This document shows, one piece after another, positions 17,557-50,058 of a stretch of 64,000 nucleotides of DNA (the first letter of the stretch is position 1; every line of letters starts with the position of its first letter). The notes below the pieces were generated by a model. It did no database searches and was not told the origin of the DNA. It saw nothing but the letters and a program-made list of their open reading frames with translations. Source of the DNA: Escherichia coli. GTDB lineage: Bacteria > Pseudomonadota > Gammaproteobacteria > Enterobacterales > Enterobacteriaceae. The translations under genes and the position numbers were made by a program. The stretch lies in the NCBI RefSeq assembly GCF_022846255.1, contig NZ_AP025682.1, one strand, 5' to 3'.

Positions 17557-18480
17557 TTAACGCGTTCGCTGCGAAAGCACCTGCTGCTTATCCAGCTTTT
17601 GCACCAGCGGCTGCACCACTTTATCCCCATGCTGACCAAAGTATTGATACAGCGTATCGGACGCGCTTTTAGTCAGCACCATAATCTCAATGCGCCGGTT
17701 GCCCGCGCTTTGCGGATTTTTCGCGTCCAGCAGCATCTGGTCCGCCATTGCGCTCACCTGCATCACTTTATCTTCCGGCATTCCTGCCTCTTCCAGCACC
17801 CGACGAGCCGAAAGCGCGCGGTCACCCGAAAGGTTCCAGTTGTTGTAGATATTGTTTTTGTAGGCCATCGCATCGGTATGCCCGGTAATAATAATTTTGT
17901 TATCGAGCGAGTCGAACACTGGCGCGAGCTCCACCAGCAGCGTTTTAAAGAACGGCATAATCTGCGCGCTGCCGCGTTCGAACATATTGCGATTCTGGTC
18001 GTCTTTAATCAGCACGCGTAATCCCTGCGGGACAATCTCCATCTCCAGATTCGCTTCCATATGCGCATCACGGGCAATGGTGTTGATGCTGGTTGCCAGC
18101 TCACCAAGCTCGGTGGCGGATTTCTTCTTCAGCAGCGCCGTTTTCTCGTTGACGTCGCGCGCTTTTTTCTCCGTCTCTTCCGGCACCGCCACGGTGGCAG
18201 GTTTTGACGGATGAGACGGGCTGATTTTATTTAACGGCGACAGCCCACCACCGTTAAAAATCGACTGCCCGTGCAGCGCGGCGATAATGCTTTCACGCTC
18301 GGATTTACTGACGCTATTGACAATCCACAGCGTCATAAATAGCGCCATCATCGCCAGGGTAAAGTCGGCGAACGCTACCTTCCACGCCCCGCCGTGGTGC
18401 CCGGCATGATTCTTTTTGATCTGCCGCCGGACGATGGTGGTTTTTGCCCCACGCTCGCGGCGGTTGCCCGTCTTTCTCAT
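17557..18480 (-). CDS. lafU: Lateral flagellar motor stator protein LafU (MotB-like, OmpA C-terminal domain); mbhA counterpart
   Basis: Single TM segment (WKVAFADFTLAMMALFMTLWIV) plus OmpA-like peptidoglycan-binding C-terminus; start set at MRKTGNRRE just after the lafT stop. Confidence 0.85.
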   Translation of the reverse strand: MRKTGNRRERGAKTTIVRRQIKKNHAGHHGGAWKVAFADFTLAMMALFMTLWIVNSVSKSERESIIAALHGQSIFNGGGLSPLNKISPSHPSKPATVAVPEETEKKARDVNEKTALLKKKSATELGELATSINTIARDAHMEANLEMEIVPQGLRVLIKDDQNRNMFERGSAQIMPFFKTLLVELAPVFDSLDNKIIITGHTDAMAYKNNIYNNWNLSGDRALSARRVLEEAGMPEDKVMQVSAMADQMLLDAKNPQSAGNRRIEIMVLTKSASDTLYQYFGQHGDKVVQPLVQKLDKQQVLSQRTR

Positions 18481-18482
18481 GC

Positions 18483-19346
18483 TTATTCTTGCTCCAGCAT
18501 CGCATTCACCCATGCATCGAGGTTGGCGAAGGTCGGTTTGGACGCCAGATGCAGCAGCTTACGCCCGGCGTCCACCGCCAGCAGCGTCGGTTTGCCGCCC
18601 GCCTGGGCCACCAGCACGGTACGCACACACTCCAGCAGCGAATGTTCCGCCCGCGCCTGCTGTTCCATGGCGTTGGCGAGCGGGTCCATCAGGCAGTAGC
18701 AAATAAACACGCCTAAAAATGTCCCCACCAGCGCTGCCGCCACTTTCAGGCCAATCAGGGCGATAGAACCGTCAATTGACTGCATGGTGATGATGATGCC
18801 CAGCACTGCCGCGCAAATACCAAATCCCGGCATCGCTTCGGCGGTCCGTTGCAGCGAGCGTGACGGCGTTAACAGCGACTCTTCAGCGGTGTCCAGCTCC
18901 TGATCGAGAATGCCTTCCAGTTCATGGGCGTCGATTTTACCCATCGCCATCAGGCGAAAGTTATCGGCAATAAAAGTCACCAGCCGCTTCTGGGTTAACA
19001 CCAGCGGGTATTTCTGGAAAACGGTACTCTCTTCCGGCTGCTCAATATGCTGATCCAACATCCGCAGACCGCCGTTTTGTACCATTTCAAGCAACTCATA
19101 CAGGCACATTAATAGCTGGCGCTGAAACTCCGGCCCGAGCTGTTTTTTACTGATCACGCCTTTAATTTGATGGGCAATCTCTTTCAGCACATGTTTCGGG
19201 TTCCCAATAATCATCGCCCCGAAACCCGCACCCAAAATAATGATCATTTCCGCCGGTTGCCAGATAGCCACTAATTGGCCGCCCGCTTCAAAATAACCGC
19301 CAAATACGCAGCCGAGCACCACCAGTAAACCTAATATTTTTTGCAT
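18483..19346 (-). CDS. lafT: Lateral flagellar motor stator protein LafT (MotA-like), 287 aa
   Basis: Four-TM MotA/TolQ/ExbB-type sequence immediately upstream of the MotB-like gene. Confidence 0.85.
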   Translation of the reverse strand: MQKILGLLVVLGCVFGGYFEAGGQLVAIWQPAEMIIILGAGFGAMIIGNPKHVLKEIAHQIKGVISKKQLGPEFQRQLLMCLYELLEMVQNGGLRMLDQHIEQPEESTVFQKYPLVLTQKRLVTFIADNFRLMAMGKIDAHELEGILDQELDTAEESLLTPSRSLQRTAEAMPGFGICAAVLGIIITMQSIDGSIALIGLKVAAALVGTFLGVFICYCLMDPLANAMEQQARAEHSLLECVRTVLVAQAGGKPTLLAVDAGRKLLHLASKPTFANLDAWVNAMLEQE

Positions 19347-19358
19347 GATTTCTTCACT

Positions 19359-20078
19359 TTAATTCGGATAGACAAAATCACGAATTTTCTGCGCGATCTG
19401 TTTATTCAGTTGACAAATTCGGGCCTCGGTTAGCCCTAATACCAGCGCAATCTCTTTGAGATTCATCTCATGCTGGTAATACATGGAGAGGATCAGTTGC
19501 TCTTTTTCGCTTAATTGTGAAAGCGCGTGTTGCAGCATTTTCTGCGTGACAAACTGATCTTCCAGGTCTCTGCCAGCAAGCGGAATACCCGGTCCTTCGC
19601 CGTTCAGCAGTTCGTCCAGGCTGGCGAGCGTTTCCGCCCCTTCCAGTTGCTGATATTCGAGATAATCTTCATGCGAGATCCCTTCCTCAGCCAGCTCCTG
19701 CCACTCCGGTTCGTGCCCCAGTTTTTTACGCGTTTCGCGAATCAGGTCTTTCATCTGATGATATTTCTGTCGCAGCTGGCGCGGTCGCCAGTCGAGAGCG
19801 CGCAGCTCATCCAGGATCGCACCGCGAATACGGTGCACGGCATAGCCCGCAAAACCTTCGTCCGGCAGCCCATAGCGACGAATGGCCTTCAACAGCCCCA
19901 TTAACGCCGTTTGTTCCATATCCTGACGGTCAATAATGCAATTACACTGCGGGGCAAGGTGCCGCACCACTTTACGCACCAACGGTAAATAGGCCTGCAA
20001 GTAGTGGCTCTCCTGCTGCGGGGTTAATACCGGCGCGGCAGCAAATTCTTCTGACTCGAATAATACGTCCTGTAGCAT
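19359..20078 (-). CDS. lafS: Lateral flagellar sigma-28 (FliA-family) LafS, 239 aa
   Basis: Sigma-70 family regions 2 and 4 recognisable (e.g. LKEIALVLGLTEARICQLNKQ HTH). Confidence 0.85.
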   Translation of the reverse strand: MLQDVLFESEEFAAAPVLTPQQESHYLQAYLPLVRKVVRHLAPQCNCIIDRQDMEQTALMGLLKAIRRYGLPDEGFAGYAVHRIRGAILDELRALDWRPRQLRQKYHQMKDLIRETRKKLGHEPEWQELAEEGISHEDYLEYQQLEGAETLASLDELLNGEGPGIPLAGRDLEDQFVTQKMLQHALSQLSEKEQLILSMYYQHEMNLKEIALVLGLTEARICQLNKQIAQKIRDFVYPN

Positions 20079-20097
20079 GTTTATATCCGCCTGGTGA

Positions 20098-20565
20098 TTA
20101 CTGGAAGACCACTTTTTTCACCAGTAAATCCTTATACGGTGCGCTCATTTTGCGACGCTGAAGATCTTTCTTTAACGCATCCGAAATCAGTTTGCGGATG
20201 GCAGATATTTTCATGCCGCGCAAATCTTCAAATTTCATTTCCGTCAGGCATTCAACTGCAATACTTTGATACAGAGGCTCCTGATGTTTTATTTTTTCCG
20301 CCTCTTTGTCACTGGCGACCACCATCACTAATTCCGCCGACAAATAATGATCCGCGCCGTTGTTGTCATGCAAAGTGACAATGGTTTCCGGCAGCGTCAC
20401 AAATACGCTCTTGCTCTCATCCAGAGCTTCCACCGATTCCGTTTGCGCGGCGGTAGTCGGTTTTCCTTTTCCGGCATAATGATGCCAGACACTCCATCCT
20501 GCTCCAGCGCCGACCACCAACGCCAGAACGGCGCTGACCACGCCTGCCACCACGATTTTCTTCAT
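20098..20565 (-). CDS. lafF: FliL-like basal-body-associated protein LafF, 155 aa
   Basis: N-terminal TM followed by FliL-like domain; position between the fliK-like gene and the sigma gene. Confidence 0.75.
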   Translation of the reverse strand: MKKIVVAGVVSAVLALVVGAGAGWSVWHHYAGKGKPTTAAQTESVEALDESKSVFVTLPETIVTLHDNNGADHYLSAELVMVVASDKEAEKIKHQEPLYQSIAVECLTEMKFEDLRGMKISAIRKLISDALKKDLQRRKMSAPYKDLLVKKVVFQ

Positions 20566-20572
20566 ATTGCCT

Positions 20573-21634
20573 TTACACTTTGATCAAAACGGATTCGTTC
20601 TGTTGAAATTGAGGCGCATCATCAAGCTGTAAGGCGGCACTCACCTCTTCCTGCTGATGGCCCGACTGTTGTTGCTGCTGCGACTGCCCTTCGGAGGAGA
20701 CCTGTACGTTCACCTCCATAAAATTTTGCGCCGTCAGATGCTGGCGGAGATCGTCGCTAAACTGCTGTAACGCGCGGCAAACTTCACTTTGGTTCGCGCC
20801 GATGTGCACCATCAGTTTGCCGTTGTCGAGTTGTACGGCGATCTCGAGCTTGCCAAGCGACGGTGGATCGAGACGGATGGTGGAGATCTGCTGTTGTTTG
20901 TTGAGCTGAAAGTGGATCTGATCTTTCAACAGCGTCGTCAGTTTTTCGCCCAGTTCGTCGATCGAAAGCGTGGCTGGTTTGGCGACAATCTCCTGATGAT
21001 CGCTGACCAGCTCCGGCGTCTTAACCTGCAACACCGCACGCGCAATAACCAGTTCGCTGTCCGACACTTTTTCCGTTTTACGCTCGACCTGCGGGCGCGC
21101 GTTCACACGGGTTAGTTCAGGTTTCGGGCGAGCTGGCTGTGTTGAGACGCGCGGCTGCGTCGGTGCAATGGCATGTAAATCTTCACTGGCGTAAGTCGCC
21201 AGTCTGGCCTGCTGTTCGGGTTTCGCCTGCGGCAACTGACCGATCAGCTCCTGCAACTGCGGCGGCAACGGCGTGAGTTCCTGCTGCTGCGTCGGGCGTT
21301 GCGCCGCGTTTTGCACCACCGCTTTCGTCAATTGCTGGATAACCGGCGATGTTGCGACGTTTCGCGGCTGCGGCGTGTCCTGATGCGGCGCGGCAGGTTG
21401 CGGAAGTAACAGCGCCATTAGCGCCTGCATCGCCACCGGATCGTTCTCCTGCGGGCGCGTCGCCTGTTGCTGACTGGTTTTTGCGCTATGAACGCGCTCC
21501 GCCACCGCCGCGACCGCCATTTTCGGCAGGGTAAACGCGGGCGCGTTTTCACTACTCACCGGCGGTAAAATATCCGCTTTCAGCGACGCCGTTTCCGCAA
21601 GTGTTCCGAGCGTGGCAAGCAATGCCGGATTCAT
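20573..21634 (-). CDS. lafE: Hook-length control protein LafE (FliK-like), 353 aa
   Basis: Pro/Gln-rich low-complexity middle and FliK-like C-terminal domain; conserved position. Confidence 0.7.
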   Translation of the reverse strand: MNPALLATLGTLAETASLKADILPPVSSENAPAFTLPKMAVAAVAERVHSAKTSQQQATRPQENDPVAMQALMALLLPQPAAPHQDTPQPRNVATSPVIQQLTKAVVQNAAQRPTQQQELTPLPPQLQELIGQLPQAKPEQQARLATYASEDLHAIAPTQPRVSTQPARPKPELTRVNARPQVERKTEKVSDSELVIARAVLQVKTPELVSDHQEIVAKPATLSIDELGEKLTTLLKDQIHFQLNKQQQISTIRLDPPSLGKLEIAVQLDNGKLMVHIGANQSEVCRALQQFSDDLRQHLTAQNFMEVNVQVSSEGQSQQQQQSGHQQEEVSAALQLDDAPQFQQNESVLIKV

Positions 21635-21942
21635 GACTTCTCCGAAAGTAAATTAACAATTGAGTAGGCCAGTACGCCTTCCTGATGCCGCTGATGCTGT
21701 TCCATACGCGCCTTCAACACTTCTGCACGCTGCTCGCGCCGTTTAATCAGGGCATTAAACGCGCCGTACAGCTGCGCCTTCACCGCACACAACTGCGCCG
21801 CGTCGGTTTCCGCCGCCACGTAATCGTGAAACTGGCGCATCAACTGCTGATGCAGTGCCGGAAGGCGTCGCCAGCGTTGCTTGTCGAGGGCTTCGTTCAT
21901 CGCTTCAACCAGCGCGAAAAGTTGCCTGCGTTGTTTTTCCAT
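21631..21942 (-). CDS. lafD: LafD, small helical protein in the FliT position (probable export chaperone)
   Basis: Start set at MEKQRRQL, 5 nt after the lafC stop (ORF track extends into lafC); function by position only. Confidence 0.55.
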   Translation of the reverse strand: MEKQRRQLFALVEAMNEALDKQRWRRLPALHQQLMRQFHDYVAAETDAAQLCAVKAQLYGAFNALIKRREQRAEVLKARMEQHQRHQEGVLAYSIVNLLSEKS

Positions 21943-21946
21943 CGTC

Positions 21947-22339
21947 TTAACCCAGCTTGCCCGAAAGCCCTTCCCAGCCTTCACGCAGGTTGCTTAAGAT
22001 CAGCATCACTTCATCGATTTTCTCTGCCGACAGTTCGCCGCTGGCCTCATACAAGCGATACACACAGTGGTCATAGAGGCGCGAAAGGTTGACCACCAGC
22101 TCGCCGCCAGTTTCAAACTCCAGCGAACTGGTGAGCGCATTGAGAATGTCGATGCATTTATTGATGCTCTGGGCTTTCTTCTCGAAACGCCGCCCTTCAA
22201 TATGGCTTTTGGCGCGTTCCAGCTCGTCCATCAGACCAGAAAACAGCACCAGCACCAGTTCCAGAGGCGATGCCGCCGCAGTACGCGCCGCGAGATCGAT
22301 CTCTTTATATTGCGAATAGCCGTCCTGTACTTGGTACAT
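21947..22339 (-). CDS. lafC: Flagellin-specific chaperone LafC (FliS-like), 130 aa
   Basis: FliS-like sequence (MYQVQDGYSQYKEIDLAARTAAASPLELVLVLFSGL...). Confidence 0.85.
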   Translation of the reverse strand: MYQVQDGYSQYKEIDLAARTAAASPLELVLVLFSGLMDELERAKSHIEGRRFEKKAQSINKCIDILNALTSSLEFETGGELVVNLSRLYDHCVYRLYEASGELSAEKIDEVMLILSNLREGWEGLSGKLG

Positions 22340-22361
22340 CTTTAGGGATATTCCTTCTGAG

Positions 22362-23678
22362 TTACGCGAATGCCGCCATGCTGGCTTTCATGGTGTACAC
22401 CTCGACCAGCGTGTTGGTGTACTCCTCGAGATAACGGTCGTAGTTGGCGTTATAGGTATCAGTAAGCTGATCGCCTTCGTCCTGAATTTTGCTCATCTGA
22501 TCGTCAATGTTCTGCTGGCGCAGGGTGATGATGCCGTTGCTGGAGTCCGTGTAGGTGTTAATCAGGTCGTCCATCTGTGCCACCATGCTGTTGTCGCCAA
22601 CGAAAATAGAGGTCAGACCGTCAGGATTTTTCGCCATTTCGTCGTTGAACTGGTCGGAGTCAATCTGTAAGTGGCCGTGAGAATCAAGCGTGATGCCATA
22701 GTCAACAATCGACACCCCGTTGTAGCTGGCATGGGCGATATCATCGAGCTGGTTCGCCAGTGAGCTGAGTCCGGCGTCACCCGCAAATACCCCGGCGCTG
22801 GTACTGTCATCACCGTGGGTGGTCAACGAATCAACCGTATCAATCAAGGTGTTATAAGCATCAACAAAGGTCTGTACTTTCTCCTGGCTGGCGCTGGAAT
22901 CTTCGCTGATGTTAAAGGTAGTGAGATCGCTGTCAGAATCGCTGACTTCGGTGAAAGTCATGGTGACGCCGGGGATCACATCATCAAAGGTATTGCTGCT
23001 ATTAGTGATCTCTGGCCCCGTGGCGCTGCCGAGATGAATAATCGCGTCCTGGGCGGAGGAAACATCCGTAGCAACAGGCGCGCTGGCGCTGTCGTTGCTG
23101 GCGTCATGCCCCGTTACGCTCACCGAAAATGCGCTCTGCGCCCCGGTGCTATCGGAGGTGAGCATAATCGTGGTGGTGCCGTCGGTTTTTACCAGTGCCG
23201 CCGACACGCCCGGATTGTCATCAGAGTCGTTAATCGCATTCACCAGTTCACTGGCGTCGATAAAACCGTCGCCGTCACCGTTCTGATCTGCCGCCGACAG
23301 ATCAATATCCATGGTGCTGTCGCCCATCGTCAGTTCGAAGGTGCCGGTAGCGGAAAAGGCGTCGTCGCCCATACTGAACGTGGTTTGCTGCCCCTGTGCC
23401 AGTTGCTCAACGAAAAATGAGTAGCTTCCCGCCTGCACCTGCGAGTTAGCGGAAACGGTCGCCGAGTCATTATTGCTGGTGGCGGCAAACGTCACCGGGC
23501 CGTCAGTATCGCTGTTCAGCGCGTCAACGGCGCTCTGAAAATCGCTCAACGCTGAGCTGAGCGAGTCCAGGCCGCTGCTTTCAGCATCCAGCTCGCTCTG
23601 CTTCTCCTGCAAATTGGCTGCCTGAGTGGCAACATCCGCATAAGCGATTTCTTGCGCAATGGTTCTTGGGTTGATCAT
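22362..23678 (-). CDS. lafB: Filament cap protein LafB (FliD / HAP2-like), 438 aa
   Basis: FliD-like N- and C-terminal heptad regions; first gene after a sigma54 promoter motif. Confidence 0.8.
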   Translation of the reverse strand: MINPRTIAQEIAYADVATQAANLQEKQSELDAESSGLDSLSSALSDFQSAVDALNSDTDGPVTFAATSNNDSATVSANSQVQAGSYSFFVEQLAQGQQTTFSMGDDAFSATGTFELTMGDSTMDIDLSAADQNGDGDGFIDASELVNAINDSDDNPGVSAALVKTDGTTTIMLTSDSTGAQSAFSVSVTGHDASNDSASAPVATDVSSAQDAIIHLGSATGPEITNSSNTFDDVIPGVTMTFTEVSDSDSDLTTFNISEDSSASQEKVQTFVDAYNTLIDTVDSLTTHGDDSTSAGVFAGDAGLSSLANQLDDIAHASYNGVSIVDYGITLDSHGHLQIDSDQFNDEMAKNPDGLTSIFVGDNSMVAQMDDLINTYTDSSNGIITLRQQNIDDQMSKIQDEGDQLTDTYNANYDRYLEEYTNTLVEVYTMKASMAAFA

Positions 23679-23710
23679 TGATGACTCCGGATAACGATGT
23701 CAGGTTATTG

Positions 23711-23725
23711 GCAAAAGGCGTGCCA
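23711..23725 (-). promoter_or_regulatory. Sigma54 (-24/-12) promoter motif upstream of lafB
   Basis: Minus strand reads TGGCACgccttTTGC, a perfect match to TGGCAC-N5-TTGC; predicted start site about 20 nt upstream of the lafB ATG, which has a GGAG Shine-Dalgarno. Confidence 0.6.
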
Positions 23726-23842
23726 ATAATTTTTATGTGAATAATCAATAAATTGAAAAAGGGGCGGAAATGGTGTTTCCGGTCTGGCGGAAAAAAGCCT
23801 GCCGCTGAAAGCACAACACCGCCCGCAGGCGGTGTTGTTCGT

Positions 23843-23873
<31 letters not shown>

Positions 23874-23883
23874 AAGTCCGCCA

Positions 23884-24798
23884 TTACTGCAGCAGGCTGG
23901 AAACCATGCTGGACATGCTGTTGGACTGTTTCAGCATGGTGATGCCGGTCTGCATCAGCACCTGCTGTTTAGTCATGTTGGACGCTTCCGTCGCGTAGTC
24001 GGTATCCATAATGTTACCGATAGCGACTTCGGTGTTGTCCTGCATACTGGTCAGGTTATTAGCGGTGTCGTTCAGACGGTTGATAGACGCCCCCAGCTTG
24101 GACTGGATCTGCGAAACATCATCCATCGCGGTAGAAATGCTGGTGATCATCTGGTTAGCCGAGCCAGACGCAGTCAGCTCAGTACCGCCAGAAACGCCTG
24201 CGGTGCCAGTGGTGTCAGCCTGATCCGCACTGAAGGAGTTGCTGATAGCAGAAAGATCCGTCACCAGGGTATTCAGCTGGCTTGAAATATTCACGGTCAT
24301 GGTGTCGGAAGATTCCGCGCCCACCTGGAAAGTTACTGCGCTCTGGAACAGACCGTCAGTACCGGTGTTGCTGGTACCGGAAACACCGAACAGGTTGGTG
24401 CCGCCGTAAGTGGTGTTTTGCAGCATGTCAGACATCTGCTGACCCAGTTCATCGTATTCGTCCTGCATCGCCTGCAGATCGTCGTCGCTGTAGGTGCCGT
24501 TCGCTGCCTGAGTTGACAGGTCTTTCATACGACCCAGCACATCAGACATTTCGTCGAACATGCTGTCAGCGGTTTGCAGCATCGCGGTGGCATCATTGAT
24601 GTTGCTCAGCGCCACACCCATACCGCTGGACTGTGCTGTCAGACGGTTAGCAATTTGTTTGCCTGCGGCGTCATCGGCAGAAGAGTTAATCCGGTTACCC
24701 GTTGCCAGGCGTTCCATAGATGTAGACAGAGAAGAGCTGCTTTTACTGATTGCATTAACGGCGGCCATTGAGGCGTTATTGGTGTTAATAGATAACAT
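23884..24798 (-). CDS. lafA: Lateral flagellin LafA, about 304 aa
   Basis: Conserved flagellin N-terminus (MLSINTNNASMAAVNAISKS...) and C-terminus (...LMQTGITMLKQSNSMSSMVSSLLQ); start at 24798 has an AAGGAG Shine-Dalgarno; short Ser/Thr-rich variable domain. Confidence 0.9.
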   Translation of the reverse strand: MLSINTNNASMAAVNAISKSSSSLSTSMERLATGNRINSSADDAAGKQIANRLTAQSSGMGVALSNINDATAMLQTADSMFDEMSDVLGRMKDLSTQAANGTYSDDDLQAMQDEYDELGQQMSDMLQNTTYGGTNLFGVSGTSNTGTDGLFQSAVTFQVGAESSDTMTVNISSQLNTLVTDLSAISNSFSADQADTTGTAGVSGGTELTASGSANQMITSISTAMDDVSQIQSKLGASINRLNDTANNLTSMQDNTEVAIGNIMDTDYATEASNMTKQQVLMQTGITMLKQSNSMSSMVSSLLQ

Positions 24799-25232
24799 GA
24801 TACTGCTCCTTGGGATTAATCGTTTTCGTTTCGATACCCTGTAAAAACGACACCTCAGGAGCAAACTTAAAATCGCCGTTAAAATTTTTTCGCCACGTAT
24901 TATCCGATGCCACTTTTAGCTAAAAAAAGCAGAGGTTAAATTCAGATAAAAAGATTATTAGCAATATCTGCCACATGGCCAGGAATCAAAATATGTCTTT
25001 ATCAAATGCTTGATATAGTTAAGATTGTCATCAATTAACGCGTTTTCTTCTCAATGTACTGATGCCAAAATTTACATTGCGTTGCAAATAGTACACGTTT
25101 AGCTATTGTGCCTGTCCTGTCATTTCGTTACATTTCCACGCCATATAGTGATTAAGAATAATCCTATTACCATAAAATATTAATTATCACGCAGAAAAAT
25201 CATCTTCTCAGGGACGTATAAGACTGTGCTTT

Positions 25233-29499: not shown

Positions 29500-29571
29500 G
29501 TTGGGTCCTTACCGGTAAATCGTGCCGGTTAAAAGCGGCGTGAAGTTGGGGATTCTTAAGTGGATAATGGT

Positions 29572-35839: not shown

Positions 35840-36175
35840 TTATTTCCCTTCAATGGCCTCTCTGATGCCGCTGATTTGCAGATTCAGAAAGGTCAGACTG
35901 CTTTGATAATCCATACTATTTTGTGAAAACCGCGCCTGTTCGCTGTTCAGTTCCACGGTGTTGCCATCTTCCGACGGCTGCATCGGCACGCGGTACTGGA
36001 CATCCACCGCCGCGTTATTTGCCCGTTGCATCTCCCTGGCAAAATCAATATCTTTAGCCTTGAAATTTGGCGTATCGACGTTCGCCAGATTCGCAGTCAG
36101 TAGCTCGGTCCTCTCAAGACGTAACTTCACTGCCTGCGGATGCACTCCCAATGCCTGTTGAAAACTGATCCCCAT
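35840..36175 (-). CDS. lfgB: Proximal rod protein LfgB (FlgB-like), about 111 aa
   Basis: Start set at MGISFQQALG with an AGGAG Shine-Dalgarno; the longer ORF-track start would lie upstream of the predicted sigma54 start site. Confidence 0.85.
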   Translation of the reverse strand: MGISFQQALGVHPQAVKLRLERTELLTANLANVDTPNFKAKDIDFAREMQRANNAAVDVQYRVPMQPSEDGNTVELNSEQARFSQNSMDYQSSLTFLNLQISGIREAIEGK

Positions 36176-36211: not shown

Positions 36212-36228
36212 AGCAATCGCCGTGCCAT
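36212..36228 (-). promoter_or_regulatory. Sigma54 (-24/-12) promoter motif for the lfgB...L operon
   Basis: Minus strand reads TGGCACggcgaTTGCT, a perfect match to TGGCAC-N5-TTGCW, about 25 nt upstream of the lfgB start. Confidence 0.65.
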
Positions 36229-36256
36229 TTTTTAAGTGACTGATGAGAAAAGGTTT

Positions 36257-36994
36257 ATGAGTTTTCAATTTTGCAGGCGGAAGTTTTATTTCCTCCTGGC
36301 GCTGGCCTTACCGGGCTACGCCGCCGTCCATCCCGTGCAACATAGCGCGCGGGAACAAGTCAACGCCCAGGTGCTGAATGCCGCCAGCCAGCAGATTGAA
36401 TCGCTAGCGCAGCAGCGGCAGTGGCATGACTATCGCTACACCTTTAAGGTCTACATTCCCTCGCAGATTTCGACTGCCGCGCCCTGCGCTACGGCCCCCG
36501 GCGTCACGCTGACTTCGCCTGCGGAAATCGCTCTCAACCGGATGAACTTCACCGTCAGTTGCCCGCAAAGCTGGCAGATGAACGTCGCGGTGCGCCCGGA
36601 TGTTCTGGTACCGGTGGTGATGGCAAAGTCACTGGTTGCCCGCGATACGCCGCTCACGGCAAATGATGTGGAGCTGAAGCCCTACAACGTCAGCGCCCAG
36701 CGTCGCGATGTGTTGATGGAGCTTGATGACGCGATTGGTTTCAGCAGTAAACACGCGTTGCAGCCGGGCAGGCCAATCACCAAAGAAGAACTGATATCTC
36801 CGGTGCTGGTCGAGCGCGATCAACCGGTGATGATTGTTTACCAGAGCGCGGGGATCAGCGCCTCGCTGCCCGGCGTGGCGCTGAAAAATGGTCGTAAGGG
36901 CGAGATGGTGAAAGTGCGTAACGCCAGCAGCCAGCGGGTCATCAGCGCGATGGTGGCAGAAAGCGGCGTGGTGACGACGGTAAGCGCGGAGTAA
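36257..36994 (+). CDS. lfgA: P-ring assembly chaperone LfgA (FlgA-like); ORF-track start is 36236
   Basis: Signal-peptide-like N-terminus, FlgA-like C-terminal domain; divergent from lfgB as in flgA/flgB arrangements. Confidence 0.75.
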   Translation: MSFQFCRRKFYFLLALALPGYAAVHPVQHSAREQVNAQVLNAASQQIESLAQQRQWHDYRYTFKVYIPSQISTAAPCATAPGVTLTSPAEIALNRMNFTVSCPQSWQMNVAVRPDVLVPVVMAKSLVARDTPLTANDVELKPYNVSAQRRDVLMELDDAIGFSSKHALQPGRPITKEELISPVLVERDQPVMIVYQSAGISASLPGVALKNGRKGEMVKVRNASSQRVISAMVAESGVVTTVSAE

Positions 36995-37074
36995 TTTGCG
37001 CAGGCGATTAAAGTTTTGCCGCCTGTTAACCGCTTTACTGGAGTAACCCACCTAAATACCGAGACGAGGTTGCG

Positions 37075-37353
37075 ATGAAAATCACCCCGACTATGCCAGG
37101 CAATCGCCCGACAGCCACAACGGCTGGCTCCAGCCAGCCACGCAAAAGCACGGCGACCACCACCACGACGCAGAGCGCAGACGACATTACCCAGGCGGGA
37201 TTGCAGTCTGCCCAGCAAACGCTGAACGACCAGCAAGAGAGCGATATCGACAGCGATAAAGTGGCGCAAATGCAGGCGATGCTGGCGTCCGGCAGCCTGC
37301 AAGTGGACACCGAACAGTTAGCCAGCGACATGCTGAGTTTTTTCCAGAACTAA
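37075..37353 (+). CDS. lfgM: Anti-sigma-28 factor LfgM (FlgM-like), 92 aa
   Basis: Small ORF with FlgM-like C-terminus (VDTEQLASDMLSFF) in the flgA-flgM-flgN order. Confidence 0.7.
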   Translation: MKITPTMPGNRPTATTAGSSQPRKSTATTTTTQSADDITQAGLQSAQQTLNDQQESDIDSDKVAQMQAMLASGSLQVDTEQLASDMLSFFQN

Positions 37354-37794: not shown

Positions 37795-37921
37795 CGACAA
37801 TTCCTTCCGCCATCGCGGAAACGGATTTTCCGCCTGATTCTCAATCCCTTGTTTTTGATTACAAAAATTCCCGGCACGCTTATTGCACATTCCGCAAAGT
37901 AATAAAGACTGGAAGCCACCT

Positions 37922-38851
37922 ATGAGTTTTATTGAATGTTACGAACCGGAATACGTGCGCAATTTTATGACGCAATATCCCGATTCGCCTTTGTACGTCC
38001 GCAAGGTCTGGAAGAATGAGATTCGCCAGAGCCTGGCATTGACCGATATTGAAAGTTGCAAAGCGGTGCTCAACGATGCCAGGGCCTTTGATTTACAGCT
38101 CACCTACCGCCCTGTGGAAGACAATGCCGCCGAGCTATCCGCGCGCGATGCGATAGTAAACCAGGCCATTTTGAGCACCCTTACGCTCCCCGATTTAACC
38201 CCGGAGCTTTCCCTGTATGCCGTCGGGATTTTGCTCTCCCGCGCCAGTAAAATGCCGGGCAGAGACGGAGATATTCTTGCCCGCTTGACGACGCTGCCAC
38301 AGGCGCTGGGGGATCATGCACAAAAAGGCACGCTACAGGCACAGTTCGCCCAACTCCCACCCGTGCCACAACTGGCGCGCCAACTGGTGACGCTGCTCGG
38401 GAGTTTTGCGTTTGACTGGTCGATTTTGCCGGAAAGCCCGCGCAAAGCCTCGCTACCGTTGCAGGTGACTTTGCTGACGTTGCATGACGCCAACAGCGAA
38501 GCTTTGTTGCAACAGCAGCTTAAGGTGCAGTGGCAAACCACCTGGCAACAGCATTTTGCCGCCGCGCCGTGGATGATGCGCAACTGGCTGATTTACCGAG
38601 TTTATCACGACGTGATTGGGCAGGCAGACGGAGCAGATTATTGCCCGCTGGTGTGTGATTTTTATCTCATCCGCACGTTAATCAGTTTATGGACGCTGGA
38701 TGGTTCTGCGCTGCGGCAGGAGGATATTTTCGCCCTCTTTGCCATGTTTGAACGCTGGCGGACCAGTGAAAATGCGCTGTTTATTCGCCAGCAAATTCAG
38801 TCGTTATGTGCCGCAGAGCCGCTGCTGTCAGCGTTTTCGCTGCTGACGTGA
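37922..38851 (+). CDS. Hypothetical protein, about 309 aa, no recognisable domain; first gene of the putative modification module
   Basis: ATG at 37922 with a GGAAG Shine-Dalgarno; same strand as, and upstream of, the multidomain glycosyltransferase. Confidence 0.55.
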   Translation: MSFIECYEPEYVRNFMTQYPDSPLYVRKVWKNEIRQSLALTDIESCKAVLNDARAFDLQLTYRPVEDNAAELSARDAIVNQAILSTLTLPDLTPELSLYAVGILLSRASKMPGRDGDILARLTTLPQALGDHAQKGTLQAQFAQLPPVPQLARQLVTLLGSFAFDWSILPESPRKASLPLQVTLLTLHDANSEALLQQQLKVQWQTTWQQHFAAAPWMMRNWLIYRVYHDVIGQADGADYCPLVCDFYLIRTLISLWTLDGSALRQEDIFALFAMFERWRTSENALFIRQQIQSLCAAEPLLSAFSLLT

Positions 38852-38861
38852 GTCGCTCTGT

Positions 38862-38993
38862 GCGCGCTTTGCCCCTCACCCTAACCCTCTCCCCAAAGGG
38901 GCGAGGGGACCGATCGAGCACGGTGTTAAAATCGGCGCTGGTTTTCTCCCTCTCCCTGTGGGAGGGGGTCGGGGTGAGGGCATCAGCGCGCAC
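38862..38993. repeat. ~130-bp compound palindromic intergenic repeat, copy B, inverted relative to copy A
   Basis: GCCCCTCACCCTAACCCTCTCCCCAAAGGGGCGAGGGGACCGATCG...CTCCCTCTCCCTGTGGGAGGGGGTCGGGGTGAGGG; reverse complement of 29572..29705. Confidence 0.6.
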
Positions 38994-39029
38994 ATTCATC
39001 ACATTCACCCATTAACTCACCCAGACACC

Positions 39030-41474
39030 ATGCCAACACCGACCATCATCAAAACACTCGCCACCCACCGCGAAAAACCGTTCGTCAGCGTCGTCACGCC
39101 AACCTGGAACCGCGGCGCATTCCTGCCGTACCTGCTTTATATGTACCGCTATCAGGACTACCCGGCAGACCGCCGCGAACTGGTCATCCTCGACGATTCC
39201 CCGCAAAGCCATCAACACATCATCGACCGCCTGACCAATGGCACGCCGGAGTCCTTCAACATCCGCTACATCCATCACCCGGAAAAACTGCCGCTGGGCA
39301 AAAAACGCAACATGCTCAACGAACTGGCGCGCGGCGAATACATCCTCTGCATGGACGATGACGACTACTACCCGGCAGATAAAATCTCTTACACCATCGC
39401 TATGATGCAAAAAAACCGGGCGCTCATCTCCGGTTCCGACCAGATCCCCATCTGGTACAGCCACATCAATCGCATCTTTCAAAGCCGCAGCTTCGGCCCG
39501 CATAACATCCTCAACGGCACCTTTTGCTATCACCGTAACTACCTGAAAAAGCACCGCTACGATGACGATTGCAATTTAGGCGAAGAGAAAAGTTTCACCG
39601 ACAATTTCAGCGCTAACCCGCTACAACTGCCCGGCGAGCGCACGATTTTGTGTATCTCGCACAGCCACAACACCTTTGATAAAGACTTTATCCTCGGGGC
39701 CAGCACGCCTGTAAACGCGGCGCTTACGGATATCGTCAGCGATCCGCTGCTACGCAACGCTTATCTGGGTCTGCATAACGCCACTCATTATCAGGCGATC
39801 CAGCATCAGGCGATCGATCAGATCGTTCTGCTGAATCTGGATAAACGCCCGGATCGCTTACAGCAGATCCGTGAAGAACTGACATTGCTGCATATTCCGC
39901 CTGAGAAGATCACCCGCCTTGCCGCCAGTGAAAATGAAAACGGTCAACGGGGCCGCCAGCAATCACACTTGCAGGCGCTGCATCTGGCGCAACAGCACGG
40001 CTGGCAAAACTATCTGCTGCTGGAAGATGACGCGGTTATTCTCAAACAGGAGAAACATATTCAGGTGCTGAACGCGCTGCTGGCGAGCCTGGCGAAAATT
40101 CCCTGGCAGGTGATGATCCTCGGCGGCGAAATTTCGCAGGGAACGATGCTAAAAAGTTTGCCTGGGCTGGTGCACGCGCGGGACTGCCGCAAAGTGTGCG
40201 CTTATCTGGTGAACAGCCGCTACTACCTGCAGCTGGCGCAGCAGATGAACAACGATGAGCATTCGCTGGAAGGCGGCTGGCAGCCGCTGCTGCGCACCGA
40301 CAAATGGCTGGCCTGTTACCCGAGCCTTTGTTATCAGCGACCGGGCTTTAGTGATATCGAGAAAAAAGCGACTGATAACATTAACCACTACTTCAATAAG
40401 TTACCCGTAGCCACCAAGCCATCTACATTACCTATCGCCGATACCATCGGCTTTTTTATGGAAACCTCATTCCACTACGCGCTCTACCGCCCAATCATCA
40501 CTGCCCTACAGGCGCAAGGACAAAGCTGCACGCTGGTGATCAACGACCGCGTGTTTAAACCGTTTCTGGATGAAATGCTGAATACGTTAAAAAGCATCGA
40601 CGATCCACAGCTCAAAGGAATGCGCTTATCGGAAATGCAGGCACACGGTCAGCGAGTAAAATGCCTGGTCAGCCCCTATCACACGCCTGCGCTCAGTGGC
40701 CTTTCCCCCCTGAACATTCGCGCCATGTACGGCTTAGCCAAAGAAACGTGGAACCACGCCGACTGGAACCGTTTTTATCAGCGCATTTTGTGTTACAGCC
40801 ACTACAGTCAGCGGGCGCTGGCACATTTCGGCAGCGCAAAAGTGGTCGGCAACCCACGCTTCGACGCCTGGCATAACGGCACGTTCGACCGCGCTCTGCC
40901 GGAAAATATCCAACCCGATTCCCGTAAACCTACGGTGCTCTATGCCCCCACGTTTGGCGCATTAAGCTCCCTGCTCCACTGGGCAGAAAAATTGGGGCGT
41001 TTGAGCGGCGATGTGAACCTGATTTGCAAACTGCACCACGGCACCTGCTCGCGCCCGGAAGAAGCCGCATCGCTGGCACTGGCGCGCAGGCATTTAAAAC
41101 AGCGCACCGACTCTGCCCGCCACACGCTGGCGCTACTGGCAAAGGCCGATTACGTGCTCACCGATAACAGCGGGTTTATTTTCGATGCTATCCACGTTGA
41201 TAAACGGGTGATCCTGCTCGACTTTCCGGGCATGACGGAACTGCTCGACGGTGAGAAAAGCTACTCCACGGCAGAGAGCGCCGACCAGCGAATCCGCGAA
41301 ATATTGCCGGTGGCTCATGATGTTGCGGAACTGCGTTACTTATTGTCAGAGGTATTTGACTGGGGGGCGGTTCAGACGCGGCTTACGGAAATTCGCCATC
41401 ACTATTGCGATGCGTTTATGGATGGCAAGGCGGGAGAACGAGCGGCGTTGGTGATTGTGGAGGCGTTGGGGTAA
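39030..41474 (+). CDS. Three-domain glycosyltransferase, about 814 aa: GT2-like + GT25-like + TagB/TagF-like CDP-glycerol glycerophosphotransferase (domain calls by motif)
   Basis: GT-A signatures (VSVVTPTWNRG, VILDDSP, CMDDDDYYPADK); GT25-like block (LLNLDKRPDRLQQI...LLLEDDAVIL); TagF-like block (VLYAPTFG...LTDNSGFIFDAIHVDKRVILL); start codon uncertain (39030 ATG vs 38958 GTG inside the repeat). Confidence 0.75.
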   Translation: MPTPTIIKTLATHREKPFVSVVTPTWNRGAFLPYLLYMYRYQDYPADRRELVILDDSPQSHQHIIDRLTNGTPESFNIRYIHHPEKLPLGKKRNMLNELARGEYILCMDDDDYYPADKISYTIAMMQKNRALISGSDQIPIWYSHINRIFQSRSFGPHNILNGTFCYHRNYLKKHRYDDDCNLGEEKSFTDNFSANPLQLPGERTILCISHSHNTFDKDFILGASTPVNAALTDIVSDPLLRNAYLGLHNATHYQAIQHQAIDQIVLLNLDKRPDRLQQIREELTLLHIPPEKITRLAASENENGQRGRQQSHLQALHLAQQHGWQNYLLLEDDAVILKQEKHIQVLNALLASLAKIPWQVMILGGEISQGTMLKSLPGLVHARDCRKVCAYLVNSRYYLQLAQQMNNDEHSLEGGWQPLLRTDKWLACYPSLCYQRPGFSDIEKKATDNINHYFNKLPVATKPSTLPIADTIGFFMETSFHYALYRPIITALQAQGQSCTLVINDRVFKPFLDEMLNTLKSIDDPQLKGMRLSEMQAHGQRVKCLVSPYHTPALSGLSPLNIRAMYGLAKETWNHADWNRFYQRILCYSHYSQRALAHFGSAKVVGNPRFDAWHNGTFDRALPENIQPDSRKPTVLYAPTFGALSSLLHWAEKLGRLSGDVNLICKLHHGTCSRPEEAASLALARRHLKQRTDSARHTLALLAKADYVLTDNSGFIFDAIHVDKRVILLDFPGMTELLDGEKSYSTAESADQRIREILPVAHDVAELRYLLSEVFDWGAVQTRLTEIRHHYCDAFMDGKAGERAALVIVEALG

Positions 41475-47469: not shown

Positions 47470-48456
47470 TCAGGAGAAAACTTCGATACCGTGCTTGCGC
47501 ATGGAGGCCAGTCGATAGCGCAGTGCGCGCGGGGTAATGCCTAACAGGTCGGCAATTTTGCTGCGGTTGCCCTGATATTTACGCATCAGGTCGGCGATAT
47601 ATTGATACTGCGCACTTCGTCCGGCCTGGCCTAAATCGCTGGTTTCCGCAACAGATACGGAGGGCTGAACAGGCCATTGCAGTTCACTGTGATCGGCAAC
47701 GTCTATTTCCGGCAGGCCTAAGGCATCCGGGAAAATCACGCCGTCGCGGTTTAAAATCATTCCCCGCTGAATGGCGTTCTCCAGCTGACGCACGTTGCCG
47801 GGCCAGCGGTAATTGAGCAGCGCCCGGCGGGTAGATTCTGAAAGGGTGATATTTTTCACCAGCACCGTGGAGTATTTTTTAATAAATGACTCTGCCAATG
47901 GAATAATATCGTTCAGACGTTCACGCAGCGGCGGCATGGTAATAGGAATTACCGCCAGACGATAATAGAGATCTTCACGAAAACGCCCGGCGGCAACTTC
48001 CTGTTCAAGGTTTTTATTGGTACAGGCAATCAGGCGAAAATTGAGTTTAATTTGTCGGTTGCTGCCTAATCGCTCAACCTGTTGTTCCTGCAACACGCGT
48101 AATATTTTGGCCTGAAGCGCCAGCGGCATATCGCCAATTTCATCGAGTAATAAGGTGCCGTTATTCGCCAGTTCCATTTTTCCTGGCACGCTGGCAATTG
48201 CGCCGGTAAATGCACCTTTGTCGTAGCCAAATAAGGTAGATTCCAGCATATTTTCCGGGATCGCCGCGCAGTTCACGCCGACATAGGGTGCGCTTTCATT
48301 TTCACCAAAGGCTACGGTGTGAATATATTTTGCCACGCACTCTTTGCCCGCGCCGGTTTCGCCCTGAATGAGCACCGGCACGTTAAATGCGGCGACACGC
48401 TTTGCCAGAGTAAAAGCGTTAATGCTGGAAGCGGCAGTTGCAATAAGTTCAGACAT
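47470..48456 (-). CDS. lafK: Sigma54-dependent transcriptional activator LafK, 328 aa, AAA+ domain plus C-terminal HTH, no receiver domain
   Basis: Walker A GETGAGKE, GAFTGA motif (ESTLFGYDKGAFTGA), Walker B LLLDEIGDMP, FREDLYYRL, C-terminal HTH (NRSKIADLLGITPRALRYRL); in-frame stop 25 codons upstream of the ATG. Confidence 0.85.
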   Translation of the reverse strand: MSELIATAASSINAFTLAKRVAAFNVPVLIQGETGAGKECVAKYIHTVAFGENESAPYVGVNCAAIPENMLESTLFGYDKGAFTGAIASVPGKMELANNGTLLLDEIGDMPLALQAKILRVLQEQQVERLGSNRQIKLNFRLIACTNKNLEQEVAAGRFREDLYYRLAVIPITMPPLRERLNDIIPLAESFIKKYSTVLVKNITLSESTRRALLNYRWPGNVRQLENAIQRGMILNRDGVIFPDALGLPEIDVADHSELQWPVQPSVSVAETSDLGQAGRSAQYQYIADLMRKYQGNRSKIADLLGITPRALRYRLASMRKHGIEVFS

Positions 48457-48584: not shown

Positions 48585-48662
48585 GCCGGATAAAGCGTTT
48601 ACGCCGCATCCGGCAATCGTGCACCGGTGCCTGATGCGACGCTGCGCGTCTTATCAGGCCTA
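48585..48662. repeat. Pair of REP elements in the lafK-lfiM divergent intergenic region
   Basis: GCCGGATAAAGCGTTTACGCCGCATCCGGC and GCCTGATGCGACGCTGCGCGTCTTATCAGGCCTAC. Confidence 0.6.
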
Positions 48663-48842
48663 CAGTTCGTGCAATGTTTTATGACGATGCCCTATATCTC
48701 GCCCGTTAATAATTTAATTATTTTTTCACCCTATTAATAATTTGCCCCTTTCACTCCCCCTCTATTTAATACCTCACCTTGTGTCACTGCCGGATTTGCG
48801 TGCACAAAATCGCCCATACCATTACAGCAGAGAAAGTAAGCC

Positions 48843-49694
48843 ATGCTGAAGTACAGTAAAACGCCAGGCATCTTTAAATTAGAAGGTAATCGGCTCGGAC
48901 GCCCCTACCATCGCCTGCCGACCCTGTTTACGGGGAATTTTGACGTGATTGATTCGCATCTGGGCAGCTACTTTCTCAAAAAGCATCGCAGCAATATCAC
49001 CTTAAAAAAGATTGGCTGCGAAATGGATATTATTAATAAAAACGCCGAACTGATGGTTTCCCAGGTCGGGCATCTGGCGTTTGATATTGATCGCTCCTTA
49101 TTGTTAATGCTGCTGGGCAATTTTTATGGTCTGGAGTCCTCTCTCGAAGAGGCGAAAGACCATAATGGCCTGCCGACCAAAACCGAAACGCGGTTAAAAA
49201 ACCGCCTCGCGCTGGATATCTGCACGCTGATTTTTAATCTGCAAACCTCCGGTATTGCGCTGAAATTAAAGATGGACAGCAGCACGGTAATTACCCACTG
49301 GGCGTATCAATTAACCTTTACCCTTGCGGGCGATGAAGAGAGCAGCTTTCGTATTTTGCTCGACGACGCCCACACCGATTTTATTTTAAATCTGATCCGC
49401 CACAGCGAGCACAGTAAACCGCAGCAGGTGGCGAAATCGGTCAATAAACCGGCCCTGATTAAAGAAATCATCCGCTCCCTGCCGTTGACTCTGAACGTCA
49501 AAATCGCCGAGCTATCGATGAATGTCGCCGATCTGGCGCAGATAAAAGCCGGGGATATTTTACCCATTTCGCTGGGAGAAACGTTCCCGGTGGCGATTGG
49601 GCAATCTGAATTATTTAGCGCCCTGATTGTGGAAGACAAAGACAAACTGTTTTTGTCGGAGCTGGCGGGCAAGAATGAGAATAGCCATGAGTAA
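48843..49694 (+). CDS. lfiM: Switch protein LfiM (FliM-like), 283 aa
   Basis: FliM-like middle domain; first gene of the lfiMNPQR-lfhBA operon. Confidence 0.8.
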   Translation: MLKYSKTPGIFKLEGNRLGRPYHRLPTLFTGNFDVIDSHLGSYFLKKHRSNITLKKIGCEMDIINKNAELMVSQVGHLAFDIDRSLLLMLLGNFYGLESSLEEAKDHNGLPTKTETRLKNRLALDICTLIFNLQTSGIALKLKMDSSTVITHWAYQLTFTLAGDEESSFRILLDDAHTDFILNLIRHSEHSKPQQVAKSVNKPALIKEIIRSLPLTLNVKIAELSMNVADLAQIKAGDILPISLGETFPVAIGQSELFSALIVEDKDKLFLSELAGKNENSHE

Positions 49695-50058
49695 GCAAGA
49701 AGATATTTTAGCCGGGGATTTTGGCCTCACCGATGAAGTTGCGCCTGTCGCCAAATCCGCCGACGCCGAAACGCTGGTCACCCGCCTGGAAGACCGATTT
49801 TCCGACTCGATGACGCTACTGAAACGCATTCCGGTGACCTTAACGCTGGAAGTGTCGTCGGTGGAAATCATGTTAGCCGACCTGCTTAACATCGACGACG
49901 ACACGGTGATTGAACTGGATAAACTCGCCGGGGAGCCGCTGGATATTAAAGTGAACAATATCCTGCTGGGCAAAGCGGAAGTGGTGGTGGTCAACGAGAA
50001 GTACGGCCTGCGCGTGCTGGAATTTAACACCCGCGATATCAACGACCTGGCACCATGA
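49687..50058 (+). CDS. lfiN: Switch protein LfiN (FliN-like), about 123 aa
   Basis: SpoA/FliN-like C-terminus (VIELDKLAGEPLDIKVNNILLGKAEVVVVNEKYGLRVLE); start at MSKQEDIL overlaps the lfiM stop. Confidence 0.8.
   Translation: MSKQEDILAGDFGLTDEVAPVAKSADAETLVTRLEDRFSDSMTLLKRIPVTLTLEVSSVEIMLADLLNIDDDTVIELDKLAGEPLDIKVNNILLGKAEVVVVNEKYGLRVLEFNTRDINDLAP

Follow-up and report, generated by a model that had tools for sequence, protein, structure and literature searches.

Flag-2 in Escherichia has been described as not fully understood in function (PMC11420993), and its locus raises a question of order: what turns on an operon that includes the gene for a sigma-28 factor, lafS, which late flagellar genes would need? 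We approached this question in a 64,000-nucleotide stretch of E. coli DNA (the window), which is the Flag-2 locus of this species. The flanking sequence is 99.5% identical to E. coli chromosomes, and the region aligns with the Flag-2 annotation of SMS-3-5, which runs from lafA, fliD, and fliS to a FliA/WhiG sigma factor, motA, lafU, and dinB. The original prediction was that a perfect sigma-54 motif precedes lafB and that LafK and sigma-54 drive lafB through lafS, after which LafS drives lafA. The gene order that it proposed, lafB-C-D-E-F-S-T-U, was borne out, lafS included, by the ORF list, the SMS-3-5 annotation, and Pfam/NCBIfam matches (Table 1). These eight genes overlap or are separated by gaps of 22 nt or less, and a search for internal terminators and promoters between lafB and lafU gave no signal above chance. 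LafS matches the FliA/WhiG-family equivalog NF009091 at 442 bits (cutoff, 339).

Table 1. Features of the Flag-2 locus and their positions in the window
Feature	Position	Strand	Details
lafBCDEFSTU operon	17557..23678	minus	ORF list, SMS-3-5 RefSeq annotation, Pfam/NCBIfam
lafU/motB	17557-18480	minus	
lafT/motA	18483-19346	minus	
lafS	19359-20078	minus	sigma-28
lafF	20098-20565	minus	
lafE	20573-21634	minus	
lafD	21631-21942	minus	
lafC	21947-22339	minus	
lafB	22362-23678	minus	FliD-like, 438 aa; FliD_N and FliD_C domains
Sigma-54 -24/-12 element of the lafB operon (predicted)	23711..23725	minus	TGGCACGCCTTTTGC; GG at 23724-23723, GC at 23712-23711
IHF core match	23743..23755	plus	AATCAATAAATTG (consensus WATCAANNNNTTR); center about -50, between the repeat and -24
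Inverted repeat, candidate LafK enhancer (UAS)	23766..23780	minus	GGAAACACCATTTCC (GGAAR-N5-YTTCC); center about -74
GC-rich hairpin, likely lafA terminator	23813..23838	minus	ACAACACCGCC-TGCG-GGCGGTGTTGT, then GCTTTC; 11-bp perfect stem
REP-type imperfect palindrome	23844..23873	minus	GCCGGATGCGGCGTAAACGCCTTATCCGGC; between the lafA stop (23884) and the terminator hairpin; -21 kcal/mol
lafA	23884..24798	minus	lateral flagellin, 304 aa
Sigma-28-like (LafS-type) promoter	24844..24870	minus	TTAAGTTT-N11-GTCGTTTT; 46 nt 5' of the lafA ATG
Second module, before lfgB (35840-36175)	36213..36293	minus	repeat GGAAATAAAACTTCC (36279-36293), sigma-54 site TGGCACGGCGATTGC (36213-36227)
Third module	37817..37886	plus	repeat GGAAACGGATTTTCC (37817-37831), one-mismatch sigma-54 site CGGCACGCTTATTGC (37872-37886)
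lafK	47470..48456	minus	sigma-54 enhancer-binding protein; Sigma54_activat, AAA lid, and HTH_8; no N-terminal sensory domain

The predicted sigma-54 motif was found where it had been placed, upstream of lafB on the minus strand. It agrees with the consensus TGGCAC-N5-TTGC at 10 of the 10 specified bases, and its GG and GC doublets have the exact 10-nt spacing. About 32 to 33 nt lie between the GC of the -12 element and the lafB ATG, and a Shine-Dalgarno sequence (GGAG, 23688 to 23685) falls within this interval. If the C of GC is taken as -12, the predicted start site is at about 23699, which gives a 5' untranslated region of about 21 nt. A bare GG-N10-GC search of the window was uninformative (753 matches versus 733 expected), and it was replaced by a mismatch-scored scan with gene context. 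There are two perfect TGGCAC-N5-TTGC matches in the 64-kb window versus 0.27 expected, and two or more were reached in 3 of 100 shuffles. Both are intergenic, are oriented with the flagellar operons, and lie 33 to 38 nt upstream of the starts of lafB and lfgB. Matches with one mismatch are at chance level (10 versus 7.6 expected) and mostly intragenic. The base after TTGC in TGGCACGCCTTTTGC is a C, versus A or T in the consensus. We also considered a 9-bp perfect palindrome in this region, TTATTGGCA/TGCCAATAA (23705-23729; -9.4 kcal/mol), as an operator or hairpin. It occurs only in the E. coli/Pseudocitrobacter lineage and was judged incidental.

Conservation of the motif was examined by scanning species-representative genomes with a LafB alignment. 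This yielded 19 enterobacterial loci (Escherichia spp., Pseudocitrobacter, Citrobacter spp., Phytobacter, and other Enterobacteriaceae) and 2 Vibrio loci. TGGCA[CT]-N5-TTGC is present 29 to 35 nt 5' of the lafB ATG in all 19 of the enterobacterial species-level loci. When the lafA-lafB spacers of the window and 18 of these 19 loci were aligned (n = 19), the TGGCA and TTGC columns were invariant, with a mean column identity of 60% and divergent flanks. The lafB promoter region is carried by 1088 of 5426 complete E. coli genomes (about 20%), mostly as a 90 to 95% identical allele, and the sigma-54 motif is unchanged in all of the E. coli alleles examined. The lafB region of the window is itself 98.6% identical to that of the nearest complete genomes. 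None of the E. coli genome records carrying the promoter region annotates a sigma-54 motif. On these sequence grounds, we regard the lafB motif as a real promoter element of class II (middle) in this lateral-type system, and it is very probable that TGGCACGCCTTTTGC drives the lafB operon in a manner that depends on sigma-54 and LafK.

The proposed activator is encoded in the same locus. The Sigma54_activat match of LafK is strong (PF00158, 1.9e-64), and its Walker A (GETGAGKE), GAFTGA, and Walker B (LLLDEIGD) motifs are intact, while its scores fall below every NCBIfam equivalog cutoff. LafK has been classed among the sensor-less activators (PMC3162934). It shares with the PspF-type members of that group an AAA+ domain and HTH_8 and the lack of an N-terminal regulatory domain. 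In the lafK-lfiM spacer of the window, we found no sigma-54 or sigma-70 consensus.

If LafK acts at lafB, a binding site for it might be found upstream of the promoter. The inverted repeat GGAAACACCATTTCC is a candidate. Its extended arm, TTCCGCC, reaches 23763, and there is an extra TTCCGCC half-site at 23786-23792. The window has four copies of GGAAA-N4-8-TTCCGCC versus 0.11 expected, and three of them adjoin sigma-54 sites. The composite module of repeat, spacer, and promoter occurs three times in the window and in none of 300 dinucleotide shuffles. GGAAR-N5-YTTCC is common to all three of these modules, which precede lafB, lfgB, and a fliB-like gene, and its distance from the sigma-54 site is 54 to 56 nt at lafB and the fliB-like gene and 66 to 68 nt at lfgB. 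Before lafB, the module is present in 19 of 19 enterobacterial loci, always at 54 to 56 nt. Before lfgB, it was found at 66 to 68 nt in seven of eight further genera, and the eighth has one mismatch. The two Vibrio fliD_L spacers also have the module, with a sigma-54-like site that reads TGGAACACATCTTGC and a distance of 110 nt. Among all of the fetched loci, the composite module occurs solely before lafB, lfgB, fliB-like genes, and Vibrio fliD_L.

The simplest reading of these sequences is that GGAAR-N5-YTTCC would be a protein-binding site. Because LafK keeps its HTH_8 domain and is the locus-specific activator, we suggest that the site is the LafK enhancer, a proposal that we consider somewhat better than an even bet. 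The broader proposal, which we favor only slightly, is that the repeat is an undescribed LafK enhancer shared from Vibrio to Enterobacterales and helically phased with its promoters (about 55, 66, and 110 nt), with a direct regulon that would consist of three operons, those of lfgB, of lafB-lafU, and of flagellin modification. In the literature that could be searched, a scope outside which the key primary papers lie, no binding site for LafK was described. The candidate enhancer (-74/-85) is nearer to its promoter than many classical UAS sites are.

A perfect IHF core match lies between the repeat and the -24 element, with an A-tract (23730-23734) beyond it. IHF core matches number nine in the window versus 2.35 expected, and the one before lafB is conserved or nearly so in only part of the species set. 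We therefore offer a role for IHF at this promoter as a hypothesis. Sensor-less activators such as PspF act at promoters of the UAS/IHF/sigma-54 type, as at pspA. At lafB, the -24/-12 core is likewise preceded by an IHF-like site and, farther out, by an inverted repeat, but the sequence of the repeat differs.

The second and third modules extend the candidate regulon. The sigma-54 site before lfgB is 38 nt 5' of the annotated lfgB start, and its repeat, which reads GGAAATAAAACTTCCGCC, sits within the coding sequence of the divergent lfgA, on the opposite strand. The repeat of the third module reads GGAAACGGATTTTCCGCC. This module heads a gene for a FliB-like protein (37922-38851), followed by a glycosyltransferase gene (38958-41474). 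It is also found 5' of FliB-like homologues in C. freundii, C. farmeri, Leminorella, and Enterobacteriaceae RIT691. In RIT691, the fliB-like gene and its module are at a different genomic position, beside lafA.

For the late tier, we turned to the region upstream of lafA. The E. coli FliA consensus, TAAAGTTT-N10-12-GCCGATAA, has no match near the laf genes in the window. A lateral sigma-28 motif was derived instead from aligned lafA upstream regions. This motif, TTAAGTTT-N11-GTCGTTTT, departs from the FliA consensus in its -10 element. Each of the 18 enterobacterial loci recovered has it before lafA, in close variants and without a change of position, and a variant is present in the two Vibrio loci. 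Related LafS-type sites precede lfgK, lfgM, and possibly lafZ. We infer that LafS recognizes the lafA motif. In P. shigelloides, the FliA_L-dependent operons are fliC_L, flgKL_L, and flgMN_L (PMC11242183). The sigma-28-like sites at lafA, lfgK, and lfgM correspond to these operons, which supports the order LafK/sigma-54, lafS, and then late genes. The lfgM gene (37075-37353) is annotated as flgM in SMS-3-5, and its homologues carry PF04316; LfgM is likely an anti-sigma factor.

The three-tier cascade is thus supported by sequence and homology, in that the sigma-54 site is conserved, lafS is in the operon, LafK is intact, and lafA has a sigma-28-like promoter. We found no demonstration of rpoN or lafK dependence in E. 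coli in the accessible literature.

Between lafA and the lafB promoter is a GC-rich hairpin of -23 kcal/mol (z = -4.7). The core of its stem is invariant in 19 of 19 aligned sequences, and in three distant taxa the stem is followed by a run of seven or eight T residues. This conserved stem and the T-runs indicate that it is likely the intrinsic terminator of lafA. The U-tract in E. coli is weak (GCUUUC), and a terminator scan did not flag the hairpin. Given this short U-tract, read-through from lafA is possible in E. coli. The invariant palindrome of the terminator, ACACCGCC-N4-GGCGGTGT, was also considered as a shared enhancer and was rejected, since there is one copy per locus, solely after lafA.

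Read-through bears on a different view of the operon, in which LafS/sigma-28 drives it mainly or additionally, either from a promoter of its own or from lafA. The operon would then be class III or autoregulated, and the sigma-54 site would be minor or vestigial. P. shigelloides does not have lafK, and its FliA_L positively regulates fliDS-lafX-fliKL-fliA-lafTU (PMC11242183), which points to sigma-28 input or autoregulation in at least one relative. The weak and unflagged E. coli terminator is compatible with this view, as are the Vibrio spacers, which have a sigma-28-like TTAAGTCA-N11-GTCGTTTT upstream of the sigma-54 module. However, the window has no LafS-type motif with four or fewer mismatches between lafA and lafB, and the conserved hairpin stands between the two genes. 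Across 19 species, neither the sigma-54 core nor the upstream repeat varies, as a vestigial site would. Also, a sigma factor alone cannot start the operon that encodes it. We consider control of this kind improbable. Alternatively, the motif might be unused in E. coli, as a coincidental match or as the decayed remnant of a cryptic gene cluster. Two perfect matches did arise in a few of the shuffles, an lfgC frameshift inactivates Flag-2 in strain 042 (PMC4578781), and Flag-2 is deleted in about 80% of E. coli. Even so, the motif is conserved in 19 species and in the E. coli alleles, with the correct placement and orientation. LafK and LafS are intact, and the Flag-2 ORFs inspected in the window match the lengths of homologues in other genera (LfgC, 143 aa; LfgE, 400 aa; LfgF, 245 aa; LfgG, 261 aa). 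A chance or relic origin is very hard to credit.

The repeat, rather than the promoter, is where an alternative deserves more weight. GGAAR-N5-YTTCC might serve a different regulator, such as the ToxR/CadC-like LafZ, or it might be a weak RNA hairpin or secondary terminator, with LafK acting elsewhere or from solution. Enhancer-free activators exist (FlgR and CtcC have no DNA-binding domains [PMC3162934]), the proximity of the repeat to the promoter fits less well with many UAS sites, and the terminator scan flagged CGGAAACACCATTTCCG and CCCCTTTTTC as terminator-like. However, the hairpin potential of the lafB repeat is weak (-5 kcal/mol). A covariation test of this repeat and of the 11-bp hairpin found the stems almost invariant, with essentially no covariation support, a result that speaks neither way on RNA structure. 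The copies at lfgB and the fliB-like gene have no T-run after them, and the lfgB copy is inside lfgA on the opposite strand. LafK has kept its DNA-binding domain, and in all of the fetched sequence the repeat is found solely with sigma-54 sites at phased distances of 54 to 56, 65 to 68, and 110 nt. We regard this alternative as doubtful and continue to prefer the LafK enhancer.

Much of this arrangement has precedents. Liu et al. (2015, PMC4578781) described consensus sigma-54 sites before lfgB and before lafB in E. coli strain PCN033, for the same locus and genes and with the same TGGCAC-N5-TTGC; they are exactly the two perfect sites of the window. That report concerns a different strain and mentions the motifs only, and conservation analysis, an enhancer, a third promoter, and an experimental test are absent from it. 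The lafB and lfgB sites and the cascade are therefore already published and largely ordinary. In V. parahaemolyticus, according to accounts of Stewart and McCarter (2003) in PMC4481668 and PMC11242183, the accepted model has three levels: LafK and sigma-54 activate class II genes, among them fliA_L, and FliA_L (sigma-28) then turns on class III, to which lafA belongs. The order of genes there, fliD-S-T-K-L-A-motAB, is that of E. coli lafBCDEFSTU. Like E. coli, the Vibrio fliD_L spacers have a sigma-54-like site and GGAA-N7-TTCC. However, the repeat is 110 nt from the promoter in Vibrio versus 55 nt in E. coli, and Vibrio also has the upstream sigma-28-like motif. For V. parahaemolyticus lafB, an RpoN site has been predicted, and lafBCD mRNA was lower in an rpoN mutant; in electrophoretic mobility shift assays (EMSA), purified RpoN alone, without the holoenzyme, did not shift a lafB promoter fragment (PMC9817140). 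In A. hydrophila, PfliM is class I, PflgB is class II, and PlafA is class III, and LafK upregulates classes II and III (Wilhelms et al. 2013, as described in PMC4481668 and PMC5013049). The same descriptions have many Aeromonas clusters as LafK independent and lafK as sigma-70 dependent. The E. coli window has no sigma-54 site before lafK or lfiM.

These comparisons suggest how the promoter might work. Polymerase with sigma-54 (RpoN, encoded elsewhere in the chromosome) would bind TGGCAC-N5-TTGC as a closed complex. LafK, being sensor-less, is probably regulated chiefly through its abundance, and it would bind the repeat centered near -74, with the A/T-rich segment and the IHF-like site near -50 perhaps aiding DNA bending. 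LafK would then hydrolyze ATP to open the promoter, some 21 nt 5' of the lafB start codon. The resulting lafBCDEFSTU transcript would encode the filament cap, chaperones, hook-length control, a FliL-like protein, LafS, and a MotAB-type stator. LafS would in turn read promoters of the TTAAGTTT-N11-GTCGTTTT type at lafA and probably at lfgKL and lfgMN. The same enhancer-plus-promoter module is predicted to drive the lfgB operon and the flagellin-modification operon (FliB-like methylase and glycosyltransferase), and the conserved hairpin would separate lafA from the lafB promoter.

With about 20% of complete E. coli genomes carrying the region, the lafB site offers a phylogenetically validated anchor for studying whether and when this cryptic second flagellar system is expressed. 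The additions made here are modest: a candidate enhancer for LafK, a third module of the sigma-54 type ahead of flagellin-modification genes, and a LafS-type consensus. They provide specific mutational targets and would permit prediction of the LafK and LafS regulons across Flag-2-bearing Enterobacterales. If the repeat is the LafK enhancer, flagellin modification would be tied to the middle class and not to the late class.

The spacer between lafA and the lafB promoter also contains a REP element, which had been proposed as a possible insulator or terminator. The element is present, with 14-nt arms that are 86% complementary, but the proposed role is not supported, because the adjacent hairpin is the conserved element and the REP type of the window occurs in only 5 of 21 distinct lafA-lafB sequences (the window, Escherichia sp. 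E1V33, Pseudocitrobacter faecalis, SMS-3-5, and strain 1162C). Most Citrobacter sequences are without a REP, and NCTC13148 and Escherichia sp. EC7003 have another REP type. Judged by this distribution, the REP is an incidental, strain-variable insertion just upstream of the hairpin. The only Rfam match was a subthreshold one to RF02564 (naRNA4), and it fell on the REP. The REP repeat also explains why a 701-nt query from this region matched E. coli genomes at a median of 11 places each.

A third module, made up of the inverted repeat that is the candidate LafK enhancer and a sigma-54 site, lies in the variable region past lfgN (see the table), together with a FliB-like gene and a family-2 glycosyltransferase gene downstream of it. 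The FliB-like gene of other genera is likewise accompanied by such a module. At one enterobacterial locus (L020) it has been relocated beside lafA, and the module is still with it. A fourth repeat, GGAAR-N6-YTTCC (GGAAGACCGATTTTCC), falls within lfiN (49627-50058). There is no sigma-54 site near it, and it is probably a chance occurrence.

Upstream of lafA there is a conserved promoter of the lateral sigma-28 type, with the consensus TTAAGTTT-N11/12-GTCGTTTT, which is distinct from the -10 element of E. coli FliA (GCCGATAA). Weaker copies precede lfgK, lfgM, and lafZ. In the long, AT-rich lafA-lafZ spacer, two matches to the IHF core, one on each strand, overlap (TATCAAATGCTTG and TATCAAGCATTTG). 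In two Vibrio loci, a sigma-28-like motif (TTAAGTCA-N11-GTCGTTTT) lies 5' of the repeat-plus-sigma-54 module in the lafA-fliD_L spacer. This arrangement suggests that the Vibrio fliD_L operon has a class III and a class II promoter in tandem. The divergent spacer between lfiM and lafK, the tier 1 gene of the cascade, contains a BIME-like pair of REPs of two types, and neither a sigma-54 nor a sigma-70 consensus could be recognized in its sequence.

Coordinates of features in the window, unless another locus is named
Feature	Position	Strand	Remark
Third enhancer-plus-sigma-54 module	37817-37886	+	CGGCACGCTTATTGC
FliB-like gene	37922-38851		Flagellin lysine-N-methylase-like; weak NF038110 match
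Family-2 glycosyltransferase gene	38958-41474		
Module with relocated FliB-like gene	L020 1090-1169		
Repeat within lfiN	49788-49803		
Sigma-28-type promoter, lafA	24844-24870	-	
Weaker copy, lfgK	29532-29559	-	
Weaker copy, lfgM	37009-37036	+	
Weaker copy, lafZ	25019-25046	+	
Sigma-28-like motif, Vibrio	L021 ~2610-2645 and L022 equivalent		V. mexicanus, V. aestivus
IHF core matches	25000-25015	both	
REP pair, lafK-lfiM	48590-48670		
Probable lafA terminator hairpin	23813-23838		
REP, lafA stop-hairpin gap	23844-23873		
9-bp inverted repeat, lafB	23705-23729		

In the probable terminator hairpin of lafA, the stem (ACACCGCC/GGCGGTGT) did not vary among 19 aligned sequences and showed no compensatory changes, and it occurs once per locus. 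Such invariance is unusual for a plain terminator, which suggests that the stem is under additional constraint at the sequence level. Between this hairpin and the stop codon of lafA lies a gap that is a hot spot for REP insertion. The REP type there differs among E. coli strains and Escherichia species (the window, L036, L037, and L007), and most Citrobacter loci have no REP in the gap.

In Pseudocitrobacter vendiensis and a "Citrobacter sp." metagenome-assembled genome (L002 and L003), LafB shares 99% identity with its E. coli counterpart, whereas the LafB proteins of true Citrobacter share about 72-79%. This suggests that either Flag-2 was recently moved by horizontal transfer or these assemblies are mislabelled. 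Finally, a perfect 9-bp inverted repeat (TTATTGGCA-N7-TGCCAATAA) encloses the lafB sigma-54 core. Because it is seen only in the E. coli/Pseudocitrobacter lineage, this repeat was judged probably incidental.
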